A DNA stretch of 64,000 nucleotides. Origin: a virus. The stretch is taken from positions 96,001 to 160,000 of IMG/VR virus record IMGVR_UViG_3300043392_000054; one strand, 5' to 3'. A model generated the notes under the pieces. That model was not told where the DNA came from, did not search any database, and worked only from the letters and a program-made list of their open reading frames with translations. The first letter of the stretch is position 1, and every line of letters starts with the position of its first letter. The translations under genes were made by a program, and so were the position numbers. Shown piece after piece: positions 48,265-59,858 of this stretch.

Positions 48265-48357
48265 AGTCAGGTGACGGAATGGTAGACGTATTTGGGTTCT
48301 CTGCCCGATACCTTTGTAAAGGCAAAAAGCTTACAGGTTCGAATCCTGTCCTGACTA
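48265..48357 (+). ncRNA. tRNA-shelled RNA 4 (AGTCAGG family; possible CTC loop)
   Basis: AGTCAGG/CCTGACT-A; Leu-type D-arm; TTGGG-TTCTCTG-CCCGA; ACAGG-TTCGAAT-CCTGT. Confidence 0.7.
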
Positions 48358-48371
48358 CAATATTAAAATAC

Positions 48372-51577: not shown

Positions 51578-51692
51578 AGTCAGGTGGCGGAATGGTAAAC
51601 GCAGGTTCGGTGGAGCAAAAGAACTCCATACCAGAGTAAGCAATTAGTTTATGACTAACACCTATTTACAGGTTCGAATCCTGTCCTGACTA
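51578..51692 (+). ncRNA. tRNA-shelled RNA 7 (AGTCAGG family)
   Basis: AGTCAGG/CCTGACT-A; TGGCGGAATGGTAAACGC D-arm; AGGT/ACCT-closed insert with GGAG/CTCC and TTAGT/ACTAA hairpins. Confidence 0.75.
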
Positions 51693-51708: not shown

Positions 51709-51897
51709 ATGAGAAAAGAAGAAACATTAATTTTAAGCAGAGAAGATATGATTGCAGCTGTAAGTGATAAAGATGTTCAGCATATTAATTGTTCTGACTT
51801 TAAGATTGATAGTAACCTATTTCAAAAAAGTAGTATTGTTTTGTTCATAGACGATAATAATCAATCTAAGATTCTTAAAAACCGATACGGCTTATAG
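51709..51897 (+). CDS. small hypothetical protein flanked by duplicated T-arm/acceptor 3' half
   Basis: 62-aa ORF; stop codon overlaps ATAGG-TTTGAAT-CCTGT-TTTGACTA. Confidence 0.6.
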   Translation: MRKEETLILSREDMIAAVSDKDVQHINCSDFKIDSNLFQKSSIVLFIDDNNQSKILKNRYGL

Positions 51898-51918
51898 GTT
51901 TGAATCCTGTTTTGACTA
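51894..51918 (+). repeat. orphan 3' half of AGTCAGG-family shell
   Basis: Imperfect direct repeat of 51668-51692. Confidence 0.65.
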
Positions 51919-51920
51919 CG

Positions 51921-52060: not shown

Positions 52061-52150
52061 AGTCAGGTGGCGGGAGTCTACACGGAGGCATCTGTGTGTT
52101 GGTTCGAGTCCAACGAGGTGTAAATACAGGTTCGAATCCTGTCCTGACTT
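52061..52150 (+). ncRNA. tRNA-shelled RNA 8 (AGTCAGG family) with a nested second T-arm
   Basis: AGTCAGG/CCTGACT; insert TACAC/GTGTA contains GTTGG-TTCGAGT-CCAAC. Confidence 0.7.
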
Positions 52151-52153
52151 CAA

Positions 52154-52244
52154 AATAATTAGAGAGAATGTGGGTTCGAATCCCACCTGGGCTGTCCGGT
52201 GAGGAGGGCCCGGTAGTGGAAAGGGACAAAGCACTCTATTTATT
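52154..52244 (+). ncRNA. circularly permuted tRNA-like RNA (YrlA/Y-RNA architecture)
   Basis: Terminal stem AATAATTAGAG/CTCTATTTATT; T-arm GTGGG-TTCGAAT-CCCAC; loop-closed acceptor CTGGGCT/GGCCCGG; TA + D-like GG loop. Confidence 0.6.
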
Positions 52245-52263: not shown

Positions 52264-52350
52264 AGTCGGGTGACGGAGAGGAAACGCATGGTAAGACGCG
52301 TAATTACTTACACGGCTCACCACACACAGGTTCGAATCCTGTCCTGACTA
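52264..52350 (+). ncRNA. tRNA-shelled RNA 9 (AGTCAGG family)
   Basis: AGTCGGG/CCTGACT-A; TGGT/ACCA-closed insert with GTAAG/CTTAC hairpin. Confidence 0.7.
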
Positions 52351-53092: not shown

Positions 53093-53166
53093 GGTTCGTT
53101 AGTAGAGTTGGTTACAATGTCGCCCTGTCACGGCGAAGGTCACGGGTTCGAGTCCCGTACGAACCG
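53093..53166 (+). tRNA. tRNA-Asp(GTC)
   Basis: GGTTCGT/ACGAACC, G73; TCGCC-CT GTC AC-GGCGA. Confidence 0.97.
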
Positions 53167-53167
53167 C

Positions 53168-53907: not shown

Positions 53908-54996
53908 ATGAAAAGTAATGAGTTCTTAAAGGCATACTTAAATGCCTATTCACCGGTTGCGCAAGAGGCCGAAGGTCAACAAATATGGGTTGACTATGTA
54001 AAACAATTCACCAATGAAGTTAAGGTAGATGCTTATGGTACTGCGGTTGCTAGAGTTCAAGGTTTTCAACCTATTTTACAACATAGAATGGGAGTGCCAT
54101 ACAAAGTTGTAATTGAAGCACACTGTGATGAGATTGCCTGGATTGTAACTCAAATTGAAAAAGAAGGCTTTATTAGAGTTGCAAGACACGGTGGTTCTGA
54201 TAATATGATTGCTGCTTCTAAAACAGTTTTAATTCACACTCATACAGGACAAAAAGTACCAGGTGTTTTCGGACACCCGGCAATTCATACTAGAAAAACG
54301 GTTACAGAAATGGGACCAGAATATCATGAATTATGGATTGACTTAGGCGTCGAGTCTGATGAAAAGGTAAAAGAACTTGGAGTTGAGGTTGGTAACGTAG
54401 TTACGTTTGATGACCAATTCAGTGAGCTTGGAGACTACTATGTTGGTCGCTCATTAGATAATAAGATTGGTGGTTTTATCATCGCAGAGGCCTTGAGAAG
54501 AATCACAGAGCTAAAAGAAAAGCTACCTTATGACCTATATGTAGTTAACTCGGTACAGGAAGAGGTTGGTTTATATGGTGCAAAGATGATTGCTAAGAGT
54601 TTAAAGGCTGATTTGGCTTTAGTGCATGATGTTTGTCATAATACAAATACACCAAAGATGAATAAGGCAAAGGATTCTGATGTGAAAGGCGGTAAGGGAC
54701 CAACATTAGAATTTACAGCCCAAAATCATAGAATGATTATCTCTAAGTTAAGAGAAGTGGCCGAAAAGACTGAAATCGACCTACAACTACAAGTTGGTAG
54801 TTATGGTAATGACACAATGGCATTCTTTTTAGAGAACACACCAACTGCAATCGTTGCAACTCCATTAAAGTATATGCATTCAACTTGTGAAATGGCTCAT
54901 AAAGAGGATGTAGAAAATTGTATTAAATTATTTGTGAATTTCTTACTCAATATTAAGCCCGAGTGGATAGATACTGTAAAAGGTGAAACATTCTAA
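53908..54996 (+). CDS. M42/M20-family metallo-aminopeptidase
   Basis: EAHCDE, SLDNKIG, QEEVGLYGA, VHDV, GNDT and HSTCE motifs. Confidence 0.9.
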   Translation: MKSNEFLKAYLNAYSPVAQEAEGQQIWVDYVKQFTNEVKVDAYGTAVARVQGFQPILQHRMGVPYKVVIEAHCDEIAWIVTQIEKEGFIRVARHGGSDNMIAASKTVLIHTHTGQKVPGVFGHPAIHTRKTVTEMGPEYHELWIDLGVESDEKVKELGVEVGNVVTFDDQFSELGDYYVGRSLDNKIGGFIIAEALRRITELKEKLPYDLYVVNSVQEEVGLYGAKMIAKSLKADLALVHDVCHNTNTPKMNKAKDSDVKGGKGPTLEFTAQNHRMIISKLREVAEKTEIDLQLQVGSYGNDTMAFFLENTPTAIVATPLKYMHSTCEMAHKEDVENCIKLFVNFLLNIKPEWIDTVKGETF

Positions 54997-55698
54997 GTGA
55001 AATTTCTTATTGCATTTCTATTACTATCATTTAGCATATTCGGGCAGGACACTACTAAACACAAGGCCTCAATTATGCTAAATGGTAGTTTTTCTGATAT
55101 AAATGGGCAATCTCAAATTGCAGCCAATATTAGTAATTCATATTCTATTACTAGAAAACACATAGAAAATTTAGTTCTTGTTAAATATTTATATGCGAAT
55201 GAAAATGGACAAATAATTATTAATGACTTTATTGTTAGAATTCAACCTAGATATTTAAGAAAAGACTGGAGTGCTTTTGCATATCATCAATTTTCAAGTG
55301 TTTTATCTAGAAAGATTAATAATAGAAATGAAATTGCATTAGGAGCTGGGCGTTATTTAATTAAGAAAAAAGATTTCTATTCTACACTATCATACGCTAC
55401 CATTTATGTTAATACTAGATATATTACAGATTTAAATATTACAAGTGTTAGACACTCAACTAGAATTCAAGTAGGTGGTAATATTAAAAGAGTGACATAT
55501 ACAATGGAAGCATTTTATCAACCCTCATTTCAAGACCTAAGTAATATTAACTATACATACGACATAAAGGTATCTGTACCAATTGTAAAAAAACTTGCAT
55601 TTAATATAAATTCATACGGTAATTATGAGTCTTTTAATTTAAAGGGAGTTAGTAGTTCTAATGATATTTTAAGCCTAGGCGTCATTTATAATTACTGA
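54997..55698 (+). CDS. outer-membrane beta-barrel protein (DUF481-like)
   Basis: Signal peptide (GTG start), alternating amphipathic strands, GAGRY, EAFYQP, aromatic C-terminus (GVIYNY). Confidence 0.6.
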   Translation: MKFLIAFLLLSFSIFGQDTTKHKASIMLNGSFSDINGQSQIAANISNSYSITRKHIENLVLVKYLYANENGQIIINDFIVRIQPRYLRKDWSAFAYHQFSSVLSRKINNRNEIALGAGRYLIKKKDFYSTLSYATIYVNTRYITDLNITSVRHSTRIQVGGNIKRVTYTMEAFYQPSFQDLSNINYTYDIKVSVPIVKKLAFNINSYGNYESFNLKGVSSSNDILSLGVIYNY

Positions 55699-56071: not shown

Positions 56072-57331
56072 ATGCTAAATATTAATTTTATTAAACAAAA
56101 TGCAGATTTTGTTAAGGAAAGACTTTTATTCAAAGGATTTAAAGATATTAATCTTGTAGATGACCTAATAGACGCATCTAAAGATAAGCATGCATTACAG
56201 CAAAAAAGTGAATTGATTCAATATGAAATCAATCAAGTTTCAACACAAATCGGTGTTTTATTTAAAAACGGAGAGGATGTTACTAAATTAAAGGCATCTA
56301 TTTCACCACTTAAACAAGATTTAGTAGTTTTAGTAGAAGATATACGTCAACTTGAAGATAAAATACAAAATATTTTATATCAATTACCAAATCTACCTAA
56401 TGAAGAGGTTCCTTATGGTGAAAGTGCTGAACAAAATGAAGTAGTGTACCAAGAAGTAGTTAATACAGAAAAAGCTCCTTTAGCACAATATGATTTAATT
56501 GAAAAATATAATTTAGTTAATTTTGAATTAGGTTCTAAAATTACAGGTCGTGGATTTCCAGTTTTTATTGGAGATGGTGCAAAATTACAAAGAGCATTAA
56601 CCCAATACTTTTTAGATTTTAATACTAATGCAGGTTATTTAGAATACATTCCGCCATTTATGGTAAATGAAGACTCAGCTTTAGCAACTGGTCAATTACC
56701 TGATAAAGATGGACAGATGTACTATATGGAAAAAGATGAACTTTATCTAATTCCAACTGCTGAGGTACCTGTAACAAATGTTTATCGAGATACTATTATT
56801 AAAGAGTCAGATTTACCAATTAAAATGACAGCACATTCTCCTTGTTTTAGAAGAGAAGCTGGTAGTTTTGGTAAAGAAGTTAGAGGATTGAATAGAGTAC
56901 ATCAATTTGAAAAGGTTGAAATCATTCAGATTGCGCATCCTGAAAAGAGTGAAACTGCATTAAATGAAATGGTTGAGCATGTTAAAAATTTGTTAGAATC
57001 TCTAGAATTACCATATAGAATTTTAAAATTGTGTAGCCATGATATGAGTTTTACCTCAGCTATTACTTATGATTTTGAAGTTTGGAGCCCAGGTCAACAA
57101 ATGTGGTTAGAAGTAAGTTCAGTTTCTAATTTCAATACATATCAAACGCATAGAATGAAATGTAGATTTAAAGACCAGAATGGTAAAATGCAAAATCCGC
57201 ATTCTTTAAATGGTAGTGCATTAGCTTTACCAAGAATTTATGCAGCTTTAATTGAAACATTCCAAACAGAAAGGGGTATAAAGATACCAGAGGTGTTAAA
57301 GCCTTATTTTGGAAAAGATTATATAGAGTAA
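56072..57331 (+). CDS. serS: seryl-tRNA synthetase
   Basis: N-terminal coiled coil, LPNLP, GQLP, LIPTAEVP, CFRREAG, RVHQFEKVE, EVSSVSN and LNGSALA motifs. Confidence 0.97.
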   Translation: MLNINFIKQNADFVKERLLFKGFKDINLVDDLIDASKDKHALQQKSELIQYEINQVSTQIGVLFKNGEDVTKLKASISPLKQDLVVLVEDIRQLEDKIQNILYQLPNLPNEEVPYGESAEQNEVVYQEVVNTEKAPLAQYDLIEKYNLVNFELGSKITGRGFPVFIGDGAKLQRALTQYFLDFNTNAGYLEYIPPFMVNEDSALATGQLPDKDGQMYYMEKDELYLIPTAEVPVTNVYRDTIIKESDLPIKMTAHSPCFRREAGSFGKEVRGLNRVHQFEKVEIIQIAHPEKSETALNEMVEHVKNLLESLELPYRILKLCSHDMSFTSAITYDFEVWSPGQQMWLEVSSVSNFNTYQTHRMKCRFKDQNGKMQNPHSLNGSALALPRIYAALIETFQTERGIKIPEVLKPYFGKDYIE

Positions 57332-57334
57332 CAT

Positions 57335-57493
57335 TGTAGTGTGGCGAAATGCGTACGCTCGGCAGACGCACCCTCCTGTCTCGGGGGTGAGGAGTTCAAA
57401 ATAAAGTAAGGATATCGGGGTAGACCACCAGCTTGCAAGCGCTATTGTCCTTTACCTAATTGCCTCGTGGTGGTTCGACTCCACCCACTACAG
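57335..57493 (+). ncRNA. giant tRNA-like RNA (GTC anticodon, ~80-nt variable arm, G73) directly after serS
   Basis: TGTAGTG/CACTACA-G; Leu-type D-arm with GCGT/ACGC insert; CCCTC-CT GTC TC-GGGGG; GGTGG-TTCGACT-CCACC. Confidence 0.75.
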
Positions 57494-57514
57494 CTATAAA
57501 AAAACTAAGTAGAA

Positions 57515-58033
57515 ATGAATTTTATTATTAGAATTGGTAAACCAGGTCTTGATTTAATTAAAGAATTTGAATCCCTACAGTTAAAACCATATCTATGCCC
57601 AGCCGGTGTTCCTACTATTGGATACGGAAGCACTTATTACGAGGATGGAAAAACAGTAACTTTGAAAGATAAAGAAATTACTGCTAAAAGAGCTGAAGAA
57701 TTATTAATGAATACTTTAGCAATGTATGAAAAAACAGTTGCAACATTTGTACAAACTACTATTAATGGCCACCAATTTGATGCTTTAGTATCTTTTTGTT
57801 TTAATGTCGGTGTTTCTGCTTTCAAAAATAGTACATTACTTAAAAAGGTTAACTCTATACCAAATGACCCGTCTATTGAATTTGAATTCTTAAAGTGGTG
57901 TAAAGCCGATGGTGCCAATAATGGTATAGACGATGATAATGACGGACAGATTGATGAAAAGGGAGAAAAGAGAATTCTTAAAGGTCTACTAAAAAGAAGA
58001 CAAGCTGAGGCTAAATTATATTTCTCTAAATAA
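57515..58033 (+). CDS. GH24 lysozyme / endolysin
   Basis: IKEFESL..Y.CPAGVPTIGYG, QFDALVSFCFNVG and GLLKRRQAE motifs. Confidence 0.92.
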   Translation: MNFIIRIGKPGLDLIKEFESLQLKPYLCPAGVPTIGYGSTYYEDGKTVTLKDKEITAKRAEELLMNTLAMYEKTVATFVQTTINGHQFDALVSFCFNVGVSAFKNSTLLKKVNSIPNDPSIEFEFLKWCKADGANNGIDDDNDGQIDEKGEKRILKGLLKRRQAEAKLYFSK

Positions 58034-59291: not shown

Positions 59292-59858
59292 ATGAAGCAT
59301 ATTAAAGATTATTTGACATGGTTGTTTGAGTCTCAACAAGAAGATGTCAATGAAAAGAAGGCAACTTACGAGTATGGTTGCGCAATGTTATACTTTGATT
59401 TTCCAGAAATGGCAGAATTACATGATAAAATTGACCCTGAACACGTGTTCAAGGATCCAAATGACCCGACCTTTGGTCTAGAAGATGAACCGCATTGTAC
59501 TTTATTATATGGTCTACATAAAGAGGTCTCAGATGAAATGGTTGAAAATATTATGAAGAATTATGCATTTGGAAATTGTACAATTAAAAATGCTTCTCTA
59601 TTTGAGAATGAGAAGTTCGATGTGCTTAAATTCGATGTAGAAGGTGATAATTTACATGATTGTAATAAAGAACTTTGTAAGCTACCACATACTACAGATT
59701 ATCCAAACTATCATCCACACATGACAGTTGCTTATTTAAAACCTGGAATGGGAAAAGAATATGCTGACATGTTTAAGGATAGAATGCATGAATTAAAGCC
59801 TAAACATGTTGTTTATTCAAAACCTGATGGAAGTAAAACTATAATTGAATTAAAATGA
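59292..59858 (+). CDS. 2H phosphoesterase (Acb1/T4 gp57B-like or 2'-5' RNA ligase-like)
   Basis: Two HxT motifs: EPHCTLLY and HPHMTVAY. Confidence 0.75.
   Translation: MKHIKDYLTWLFESQQEDVNEKKATYEYGCAMLYFDFPEMAELHDKIDPEHVFKDPNDPTFGLEDEPHCTLLYGLHKEVSDEMVENIMKNYAFGNCTIKNASLFENEKFDVLKFDVEGDNLHDCNKELCKLPHTTDYPNYHPHMTVAYLKPGMGKEYADMFKDRMHELKPKHVVYSKPDGSKTIIELK

Follow-up and report, generated by a model that had tools for sequence, protein, structure and literature searches.

Here we describe a 159-nt tRNA-like RNA gene that occupies positions 57335 to 57493 (plus strand) of a 64,000-nt stretch of viral DNA, hereafter the window, which covers positions 96,001 to 160,000 of the IMG/VR record IMGVR_UViG_3300043392_000054. 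Comparative sequence data identify it as the phage copy of a large, conserved family of tRNA-like RNAs that occurs in Bacteroidota and their phages and has no entry in Rfam. The best explanation, which in our judgment has a little more than an even chance of being right, is that the RNA is processed as a tRNA, is probably charged with aspartate and does not decode, that its conserved variable arm engages a partner, and that phage copies pair tip to tip, the adjacent seryl-tRNA synthetase gene (serS) of this phage being a local feature.

On comparative grounds, the gene specifies a genuine tRNA-shaped RNA built on a class II, Leu-type body. The cloverleaf of the original prediction, with a GTC anticodon, G73, a Leu-type D arm and a long variable arm, is read at exactly these positions. 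The acceptor stem UGUAGUG/CACUACA has 7 bp (57335-57341 pairing with 57486-57492), of which U1-A72 and G2-C71 are invariant in the family and pairs 3-7 covary. U8 and G9 link it to the D arm (57344-57369), whose covarying 3-bp stem GCG/CGC closes a tRNA-Leu-like loop (A14 A15 ... G18 G19 CAGA). In the window copy this loop reads AAAU-GCGUACGC-UCGGCAGA, the Leu-type sequence being interrupted by the 8-nt palindrome GCGUACGC (57351-57358), an insert that is missing from locus L002; for comparison, the D arm of the tRNA-Leu(taa) in the same window is GUG-GAAUAGGUAGA-CAC. The anticodon arm CCCUC-CUGUCUC-GGGGG (57371-57387) has a 5-bp stem and places G34 U35 C36 at 57378-57380, U37 at 57381 and C38 at 57382. 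Between it and the T arm lies a variable region of 81 nt (57388-57468) with GU at its 3' end before the T stem. The T arm GGUGG-UUCGACU-CCACC (57469-57485) is canonical, with a covarying stem and invariant G53, U54, U55, C56, A58 and C61, and the discriminator G73 is at 57493. The base of the variable arm (a single unpaired U before the stem and GU after it) is as in the tRNA-Leu(taa) of the window and unlike its tRNA-Ser. C74 follows at 57494 and CCA is not encoded, which is the flank of every tRNA in the window and thus fits common processing and CCA addition.

Standard tools overlook this element. ARAGORN in default mode called 26 tRNAs in the window, none of which is the element, and the Rfam tRNA model (RF00005) gave no match to a 451-nt slice at its gathering score of 29 bits or at E values up to 10. 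The folding energy of the single sequence is not better than that of shuffles (z = -0.07), so the structure is established only by comparative data. These are abundant. In an exact search, the T arm and acceptor together matched two IMG/VR contigs in which unrelated genes precede the same RNA. More than 119 viral contigs contain the anticodon-arm 17-mer, more than 119 were likewise matched with the arm motif GGGGTAGACCACCAG as an independent probe, and a strict regular expression found at least 153 IMG/VR loci with 103 distinct sequences. In an alignment of 67 unique copies (A1, the basis of covariance model R1), 98.1% of the cells pair in standard fashion, compared to 43-52% when the partners are slid. 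Compensatory changes occur in 23 of the 35 pairs, none of 500 shuffles reached any of these measures, and the same helices were recovered independently by RNAalifold. The window copy fits R1 over the full model length with 150.9 bits (E 1e-38), compared to 41 bits for the best ordinary tRNA of the window (tRNA-Leu), and it is the only R1 copy in the 182.8-kb phage record. All 100 viral loci tested with R1 scored between 90 and 167 bits, with one copy each.

The family extends to cellular genomes. At least 120 cellular loci were found in a collection of species-representative genomes, nearly all of them, among the matches listed, in Bacteroidota. Bearers belong to Cyclobacteriaceae, Cytophagaceae, Flammeovirgaceae, Saprospiraceae, Chitinophagales, Aquirufa, Algoriphagus, Cyclobacterium, Marivirga and Persicobacter; genomes of Cytophagales, Chitinophagales and Saprospiraceae are represented. 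In an even sample of Bacteroidota, 15 of 151 genomes carry R1 members, a true member being one with at least 72 bits and at least 109 nt. Neither cellular nor phage copies matched any family of Rfam 15 at E = 0.01 or better, and a full-text literature search found no description of this RNA family. The window copy has the full-length R1 match, U1-A72, G2-C71 and G73, the loop CUGUCUC, and the three helices and A-rich internal loop of the variable arm described below. Tandem arrays also exist: Persicobacter diffluens (L217) has five near-identical copies and Marivirga sericea (L240) three, spaced by about 170-250 nt.

The pattern of fixed and free nucleotides is informative as to what reads this RNA. 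Among 97 unique phage members, U1, G2, U8, G9, G12, A14, A15, G18, G19, C32, G34, U35, C36, C38, the T-loop nucleotides, C71, A72 and G73 are invariant, and U1-A72 is equally invariant in 18 cellular copies; the remainder of the acceptor, D, T and arm helices covaries freely. The anticodon stem also covaries in members that were gathered through the arm motif (CCCAC/GUGGG, CCGUC/GACGG, UCCGC/GUGGA), and the anticodon arm CCCUC...GGGGG is found in 17 of the 18 cellular copies. Where the loop had not been used as a probe, phage variants such as CCGUCUC, CAGUCCC and CUGUCCC were obtained, and cellular copies found through R1 only have UUGUCUC, UCGUCUC or CGGUCUC. The consensus of the family loop is (C/U)32-N33-G34-U35-C36-Y37-C38, where position 33 can be U, C, A or G. 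Decoding tRNAs almost universally keep U33 and a purine at position 37. The window copy does have U33, but it carries U37 instead of the purine and so departs from the loop of an elongator tRNA.

What is fixed, in turn, resembles an identity set. The bacterial Asp set includes G73, G34, U35, C36, C38 and G10, and G1-C72 and G2-C71 are conserved in tRNA-Asp (PMC9976931). G73, G34, U35, C36 and C38 are all in the window copy and invariant in the 97 phage members, and G2-C71 is present in the window copy; G10 is also there but is not conserved in the family, and pair 1-72 is U-A. The original prediction had pointed to GUC, C38 and G73 as marks of aspartyl-tRNA synthetase (AspRS), and these marks prove to be invariant or nearly so across the family. 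With the AspRS marks fixed, position 33 free and a pyrimidine at 37, the loop fits recognition by AspRS and not decoding. It is thus reasonable to infer from the conservation pattern that AspRS, rather than the ribosome, reads the RNA. The same window (53093-53167) also encodes a canonical tRNA-Asp with G1-C72, A37 and the loop CUGUCAC, so normal Asp decoding is already supplied. The suggestion that the element might insert Ser at Asp codons is not supported, in view of this canonical tRNA-Asp, the unfixed position 33 and the constant pyrimidine at 37.

The variable region is a conserved structure in its own right. RNAalifold and pair counts give the following layout: the unpaired U44; helix V1 (GAGG/CCUC, 4 bp, 57389-57392 with 57463-57466); a 4-nt bulge; helix V1b (CAA/UUG, 3 bp, 57397-57399 with 57460-57462); an A-rich internal loop (AAUAAAG/ACCUAA); helix V2 (UAAGGAUA/UGUCCUUU, 8 bp, 57407-57414 with 57446-57453); and an inner domain. 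Compensatory changes were seen in three of four V1 pairs, all three V1b pairs and six of eight V2 pairs, and the internal loop has an invariant A as the second nucleotide of its 5' strand, together with AA in its 3' strand. The arm had earlier been described as branched, with a second helix GTAAGGA/TCCTTTAC; that pairing holds and lies within V2, but covariation favors one long irregular hairpin over a branched arm. The hairpin has conserved internal loops, a conserved and single-stranded-looking segment (GGGGUAGACCACC, 57417-57429) and a palindromic tip. The segment has the family consensus GGGKWGACCAC and hardly varies among 95 of the 97 phage members and among most of the cellular copies; L037, L082 and L345 lack it. 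What remains of the arm in these three short natural variants is V1, V1b, the internal loop and a reduced V2 hairpin, and this module therefore constitutes the conserved core of the arm.

At the end of the arm, the window copy carries the perfect 10-nt palindrome GCUUGCAAGC (57431-57440). Most phage arms end in a perfect palindrome of 8-12 nt, and the tip is a perfect palindrome of at least 8 nt in 74 of 95 unique phage members compared to 4.7% of shuffles. Twenty-four different palindromes were found at this place, including GCUUGCAAGC, GCCGGCCGGC, UUGUGCACAA, UCCUGCAGGA and GCUGCGCAGC. The self-complementarity spans the four central bases, which would be the loop if the tip were folded as a hairpin, and ViennaRNA gives the tip of the window copy -1.5 kcal/mol as a hairpin versus -19.1 kcal/mol as a duplex of two copies. 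Such tip palindromes occur in 34% of the cellular copies and are mostly CGAGCUCG or AGAGCUCU. The D-loop insert GCGUACGC behaves similarly: it is a palindrome unable to form a hairpin (-0.5 kcal/mol, versus -15.6 kcal/mol for the two-copy duplex). Its site is occupied in 29 of the 97 phage members by a short palindrome (GCGTACGC, GCAATTGC, GGTGTACACC) or by a hairpin of about 20 nt, and relatives of the window copy have GCAAUUGC or GGUGUACACC there. The simplest reading of these palindromes would be pairing between two copies of the RNA.

A mechanism that unites these features can be proposed. The RNA would be co-transcribed with serS and with the lysozyme gene that follows it, cut out by RNase P and 3' trimming, and then given CCA. 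Host AspRS would recognize it through exactly the nucleotides that are fixed and charge it with aspartate, and the loop and the arm would prevent its use by the ribosome. A putative partner would grip the RNA by its conserved arm, made up of V1, V1b and V2 with the A-rich internal loop, and two phage copies would pair tip to tip. The role of the RNA would be that of an aminoacyl carrier working away from the ribosome, or of a regulator whose action depends on charging. In one specific version, GatCAB would turn the attached Asp into Asn, making use of U1-A72.

Several observations weigh against this proposal. Binding of a class II synthetase could be obstructed by so large an arm on the side of the variable loop. 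G10, a bacterial Asp determinant, is present in only 19 of the 97 phage members, and U1-A72 stands throughout in place of the conserved G1-C72 of tRNA-Asp. The only departure from GUC that we saw is in a cellular genome (L345, G139:C1:3852069-3852399), where two tandem 110-nt copies with a minimal arm have the loop CUUUCUC, that is, UUC for GUC. Clustering of the neighboring genes of 100 phage loci revealed no conserved protein partner, the commonest family being found at 20 of them; the families seen include terminase, exonuclease, an RNase H-like protein and a phosphoesterase.

The version that involves GatCAB meets difficulties of its own. For the bacterial enzyme, U1-A72 is the positive determinant and an extra D-loop base the antideterminant (PMC2330236). 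The RNA has both the positive mark and, in its oversized D loop, the negative one: the Leu-type loop is 11 nt long and is further enlarged by the 8-nt insert in the window copy. GatB was found in 24 of 25 RNA-bearing genomes tested and in all 15 bearers of the 151-genome sample; since 126 of these 151 Bacteroidota genomes carry GatB anyway, its presence is uninformative. AspRS, asparaginyl-tRNA synthetase, AsnB and GatA were not found in the phage record, which is 64% complete. AsnA occurs in 4 of the 151 genomes and in none of the 15 bearers. An Asp-to-Asn carrier acting through GatCAB is a possible role, with the U1-A72 pair as the sequence feature that suggests it. A link to aminoacyl-lipid synthases was also considered and rejected, DUF2156 (PF09924) being found in just 2 of the 15 bearers.

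The context of the cellular genes offers one further clue. At 61 of the 120 cellular loci listed, the divergent gene located 130-175 nt upstream encodes a 154-aa regulator of the Lrp/AsnC type with sufB behind it, while the downstream genes vary. Such a neighbor suggests amino-acid-responsive control, although the family name alone is no tie to asparagine. Very tentatively, and with considerable doubt, one may go further and imagine the RNA as a self-associating aminoacyl-tRNA-like scaffold for an off-ribosome tRNA-dependent reaction, for example one in which Asp loaded by AspRS is amidated by GatCAB to supply asparagine. Large Bacteroidota phages would have copied the RNA, added a stronger dimerizing tip and redirected the reaction in infection, and tRNA-Ser or serS neighbors may mark a second, serine-linked input.

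The element lies directly behind serS. The serS gene (56072-57331, plus strand; 419 aa; Pfam Seryl_tRNA_N and tRNA-synt_2b) ends with TAA at 57329-57331, and the 3-nt gap to the RNA gene is read in the sequence as had been reported. The seryl-tRNA synthetase (SerRS) it encodes is full length, with the N-terminal coiled coil, and is about 62% identical to SerRS of Chitinophagaceae (Arachidicoccus, Sediminibacterium). From this likeness one may suspect that the host belongs to Chitinophagales and that the phage acquired the gene rather recently. On the other side of the RNA, a phage lysozyme gene (57515-58033, plus strand; Pfam Phage_lysozyme) starts 21 nt downstream.

The linkage to serS is not conserved. 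SerRS homologues at 94-95% identity are found on short contigs, and others at 80% and 73%. A tblastn search with the SerRS of the window detected no homologue in 198 viral loci that bear the RNA. In a profile scan of IMG/VR, a single further phage SerRS was detected, with 66% identity, on a contig (G161) where the RNA lies 38 kb away; there, serS is followed by a terminator-like hairpin and the RNA is again just upstream of a lysozyme gene. Two metagenome relatives of the subgroup have a tRNA-Leu or a structural-looking gene upstream in place of serS. The order RNA-then-lysozyme is kept in the subgroup (L146/L329, L168, L193, L197), and cellular copies are stand-alone genes that lie beside neither tRNA-Ser nor serS. 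The idea of a dedicated ligand or regulator of the phage SerRS, with a lack of conserved linkage to serS having been named as part of what would refute it, is not supported by this comparison: serS is not near the RNA in about 200 phage loci, in G161 or in the metagenome relatives. Judged by this distribution, the adjacency to serS is peculiar to this phage and has no part in the mechanism.

There is, nevertheless, a serine signal among the phage loci. In 42 of 100 of them, the first tRNA encountered upstream on the same strand within 300 nt is a tRNA-Ser with UGA or GCU anticodon; it often lies just 4-10 nt before the RNA, and in several contigs it is the sole other tRNA within 3 kb. Clustering of the RNAs at 80% identity leaves 12 clusters with an upstream tRNA of some kind, and a tRNA-Ser neighbor is seen in 8 of these, while 15% of all tRNAs at these loci are Ser tRNAs. 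Loci with the RNA directly behind a tRNA-Ser are L004, L006, L007, L009, L011, L014, L016, L022, L029, L031, L042, L043, L051, L056, L069, L071, L081, L083, L093, L111, L118, L128 and others. Of the 120 cellular loci listed, one has a tRNA neighbor. The tRNA-Ser neighbor may be a remnant of a single ancestral tRNA array of phages whose gene order was passed on; alternatively, it may point to a functional link with the serine system. In 28 of 100 phage loci an ordinary tRNA is missing within 3 kb, from which it follows that the RNA is retained on its own account.

A serine-based explanation deserves to be weighed on the sequence of the RNA as well. Host or phage SerRS would charge it through the class II body and G73, and it would serve as a substrate, a regulator, a sink, or a tRNA-Sec-like Ser carrier that is converted further. 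Bacterial Ser determinants are the long variable region, G73, G2-C71, R4-Y69, C11-G24, C72 and G30-C40, and A73G switches from Leu to Ser identity have been reported (PMC9976931). The long arm, G73, G2-C71, A4-U69 and C11-G24 are all in the window copy, in addition to the 3-nt distance from serS and the frequent tRNA-Ser neighbor. However, the C72 of bacterial tRNA-Ser is replaced by an invariant A72, G30-C40 is U30-G40 in the window copy, and U11-A24 replaces C11-G24 in 53 of the 97 members (C11 being found in 44). The D loop and the arm base match the tRNA-Leu of the window and not its tRNA-Ser. Since SerRS ignores the anticodon, the fixed GUC and C38 would be left unexplained. The absence of serS linkage outside this phage, the stand-alone cellular genes and the possibility that the tRNA-Ser neighbor is inherited gene order count against it too. 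Altogether, we regard charging with serine as unlikely.

Another explanation does without charging and would have the RNA act through binding alone. It would be a mimic that titrates or regulates AspRS or something else that reads the GUC loop, or phage copies might be decoys that draw off a host defense nuclease directed at tRNAs. It would be consistent with a non-decoding loop and with conservation of the whole anticodon arm in the cellular copies, and dimerizing palindromes would presumably match a protein target that is itself a dimer. It is common for phages to encode tRNAs as a countermeasure to defenses that cleave tRNAs. There is also a precedent in the regulatory, non-translating pseudo-tRNA of Bacillus cereus (PMC3399842). 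Against this, the acceptor end (U1-A72, G2-C71, G73, C74) is kept as strictly as in a chargeable tRNA, which would be needless for an anticodon-loop decoy. Moreover, single-copy chromosomal genes in free-living bacteria, with the Lrp/AsnC-type regulator beside about half of those listed, point to housekeeping and not to defense evasion. For these reasons an uncharged mimic seems improbable to us.

That the element is an ordinary decoding tRNA-Asp, either as it stands or once its inserts are removed, is very improbable. U33 and GUC are present in the window copy as originally folded, and ARAGORN with option -i does give a tRNA-Asp(gtc) with a 79-nt intron. However, that model has a C-A mismatch in the anticodon stem, and what it takes for the loop is the 3' strand of the covarying helix V2. 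An insert of 79-81 nt is below the size of group I introns, and the arm is conserved as a covarying structure in every member, so the proposal of removable inserts is not borne out. The pyrimidine at position 37 in all members, the variation at position 33 and the canonical tRNA-Asp at 53093-53167 speak against decoding.

A PreQ1-I riboswitch (RF00522) formed by the 3' part of the element and controlling the lysozyme gene, or a chance fold, has a negligible probability: the Rfam PreQ1 match at 57464-57514 (31.1 bits in a scan of this small region) falls short of the 39 bits required for gathering, combines the T arm with the A-rich spacer before the lysozyme start and a 7-nt insertion, uses a spacer that is not kept in relatives with the same RNA-then-lysozyme order, and draws on a T arm that is part of the covarying cloverleaf. 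The match is thus, by the comparative data, a chance one, and these data exclude the riboswitch and chance-fold readings. Transfer-messenger RNA (tmRNA), with its tRNA-Ala-like end, G3-U70 and tag reading frame, was likewise considered and rejected: ARAGORN in tmRNA mode (-m) found nothing, and pair 3-70 is U-A and not G3-U70.

Other features of this phage region are worth recording. Between the tRNA array and serS lie an M42-family aminopeptidase gene and an abutting DUF481 gene with a GTG start (53908-55698), which are unusual cargo for a phage. An open reading frame of 188 aa (59292-59858) has weak matches, just above the Pfam cut-offs, to the 2'-5' RNA ligase/2H phosphoesterase superfamily and to anti-CBASS Acb1. 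A cluster of odd tRNA-like sequences is found at 51578-51692, 52061-52150 and 52264-52350, with fragments near 51890-51920 and 52165-52190. They have near-identical acceptor and T arms (TAGTCAGG ... ACAGGTTCGAATCCTGTCCTGACTA) and unrelated, oversized cores; two of them score 44.5 and 30.9 bits with the Rfam tRNA model and are missed by ARAGORN. With R1 they score at most 35 bits and are therefore not members of the giant-armed GUC family. Finally, the tRNA-Glu(ctc) called by ARAGORN at 48265-48358 is 94 nt long, far above the length of a class I tRNA.

If the RNA is indeed charged and never decodes, it would be a widespread case of a carrier or regulator that derives from tRNA, is dedicated to that role and has a folded effector domain of its own. 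It would be common to a major phylum of bacteria and to the phages of that phylum, and it escapes both Rfam and tools of the tRNAscan type. Because the synthetase determinants are kept and the ribosome determinants lost, the idea is directly testable. The self-complementary tips likewise provide a testable case of RNA-RNA dimerization in a tRNA-sized molecule. There is also a practical consequence for annotation, as such genes are at present overlooked or may be annotated as an intron-containing tRNA-Asp.

Some known RNAs share part of this design. The non-proteinogenic tRNA-Gly of Staphylococcus keeps a chargeable acceptor end and has little or no use in translation. The same is true of tRNA-Other of Bacillus cereus (PMC3399842). 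Unlike the RNA described here, both are of normal size, have no extra domain and show no sequence kinship to it. We know of no dimerization signal in either of them. The species 1 and 2 RNAs of phage T4 (rnaC, rnaD) are stable RNAs of 120-140 nt that lie within a tRNA cluster and are processed with the tRNAs, and our RNA can be likened to them by description only; to our knowledge, they have no cellular counterpart.

The allo-tRNAs of bacteria and phages offer a parallel in being irregular, with a long variable arm, G73 and an anticodon that does not match the Ser/Leu-type body (Mukai et al., PMC5389517). However, theirs are 8/4 or 9/3 acceptor/T arrangements, long arms of ordinary length and varied anticodons (PMC5389517). 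The RNA described here differs from the allo-tRNA configuration by a 7/5 arrangement backed by covariation, one fixed triplet and an arm four times longer. With canonical bacterial tRNA-Asp(GUC) it shares G73, G2-C71, G34-U35-C36 and C38 (PMC9976931), and it differs by having U1-A72 where tRNA-Asp has G1-C72, U37 where tRNA-Asp has A37 and a body of class II type, and by not conserving G10. In architecture it resembles the class II tRNAs of bacteria and phages, and especially tRNA-Leu (RF00005), as seen in the 7/5 acceptor/T arrangement, the 3-bp D stem, the A14 A15 ... G18 G19 .. AGA loop, the unpaired U before the variable stem and GU after it, the canonical T loop and the N73-C74 flank. It is distinguished from tRNA-Leu by G73 instead of A73, by a GUC loop in which position 37 is a pyrimidine and position 33 is not fixed, and by a variable region of 81 nt, compared to about 12-20 nt, with three covarying helices and conserved loops.

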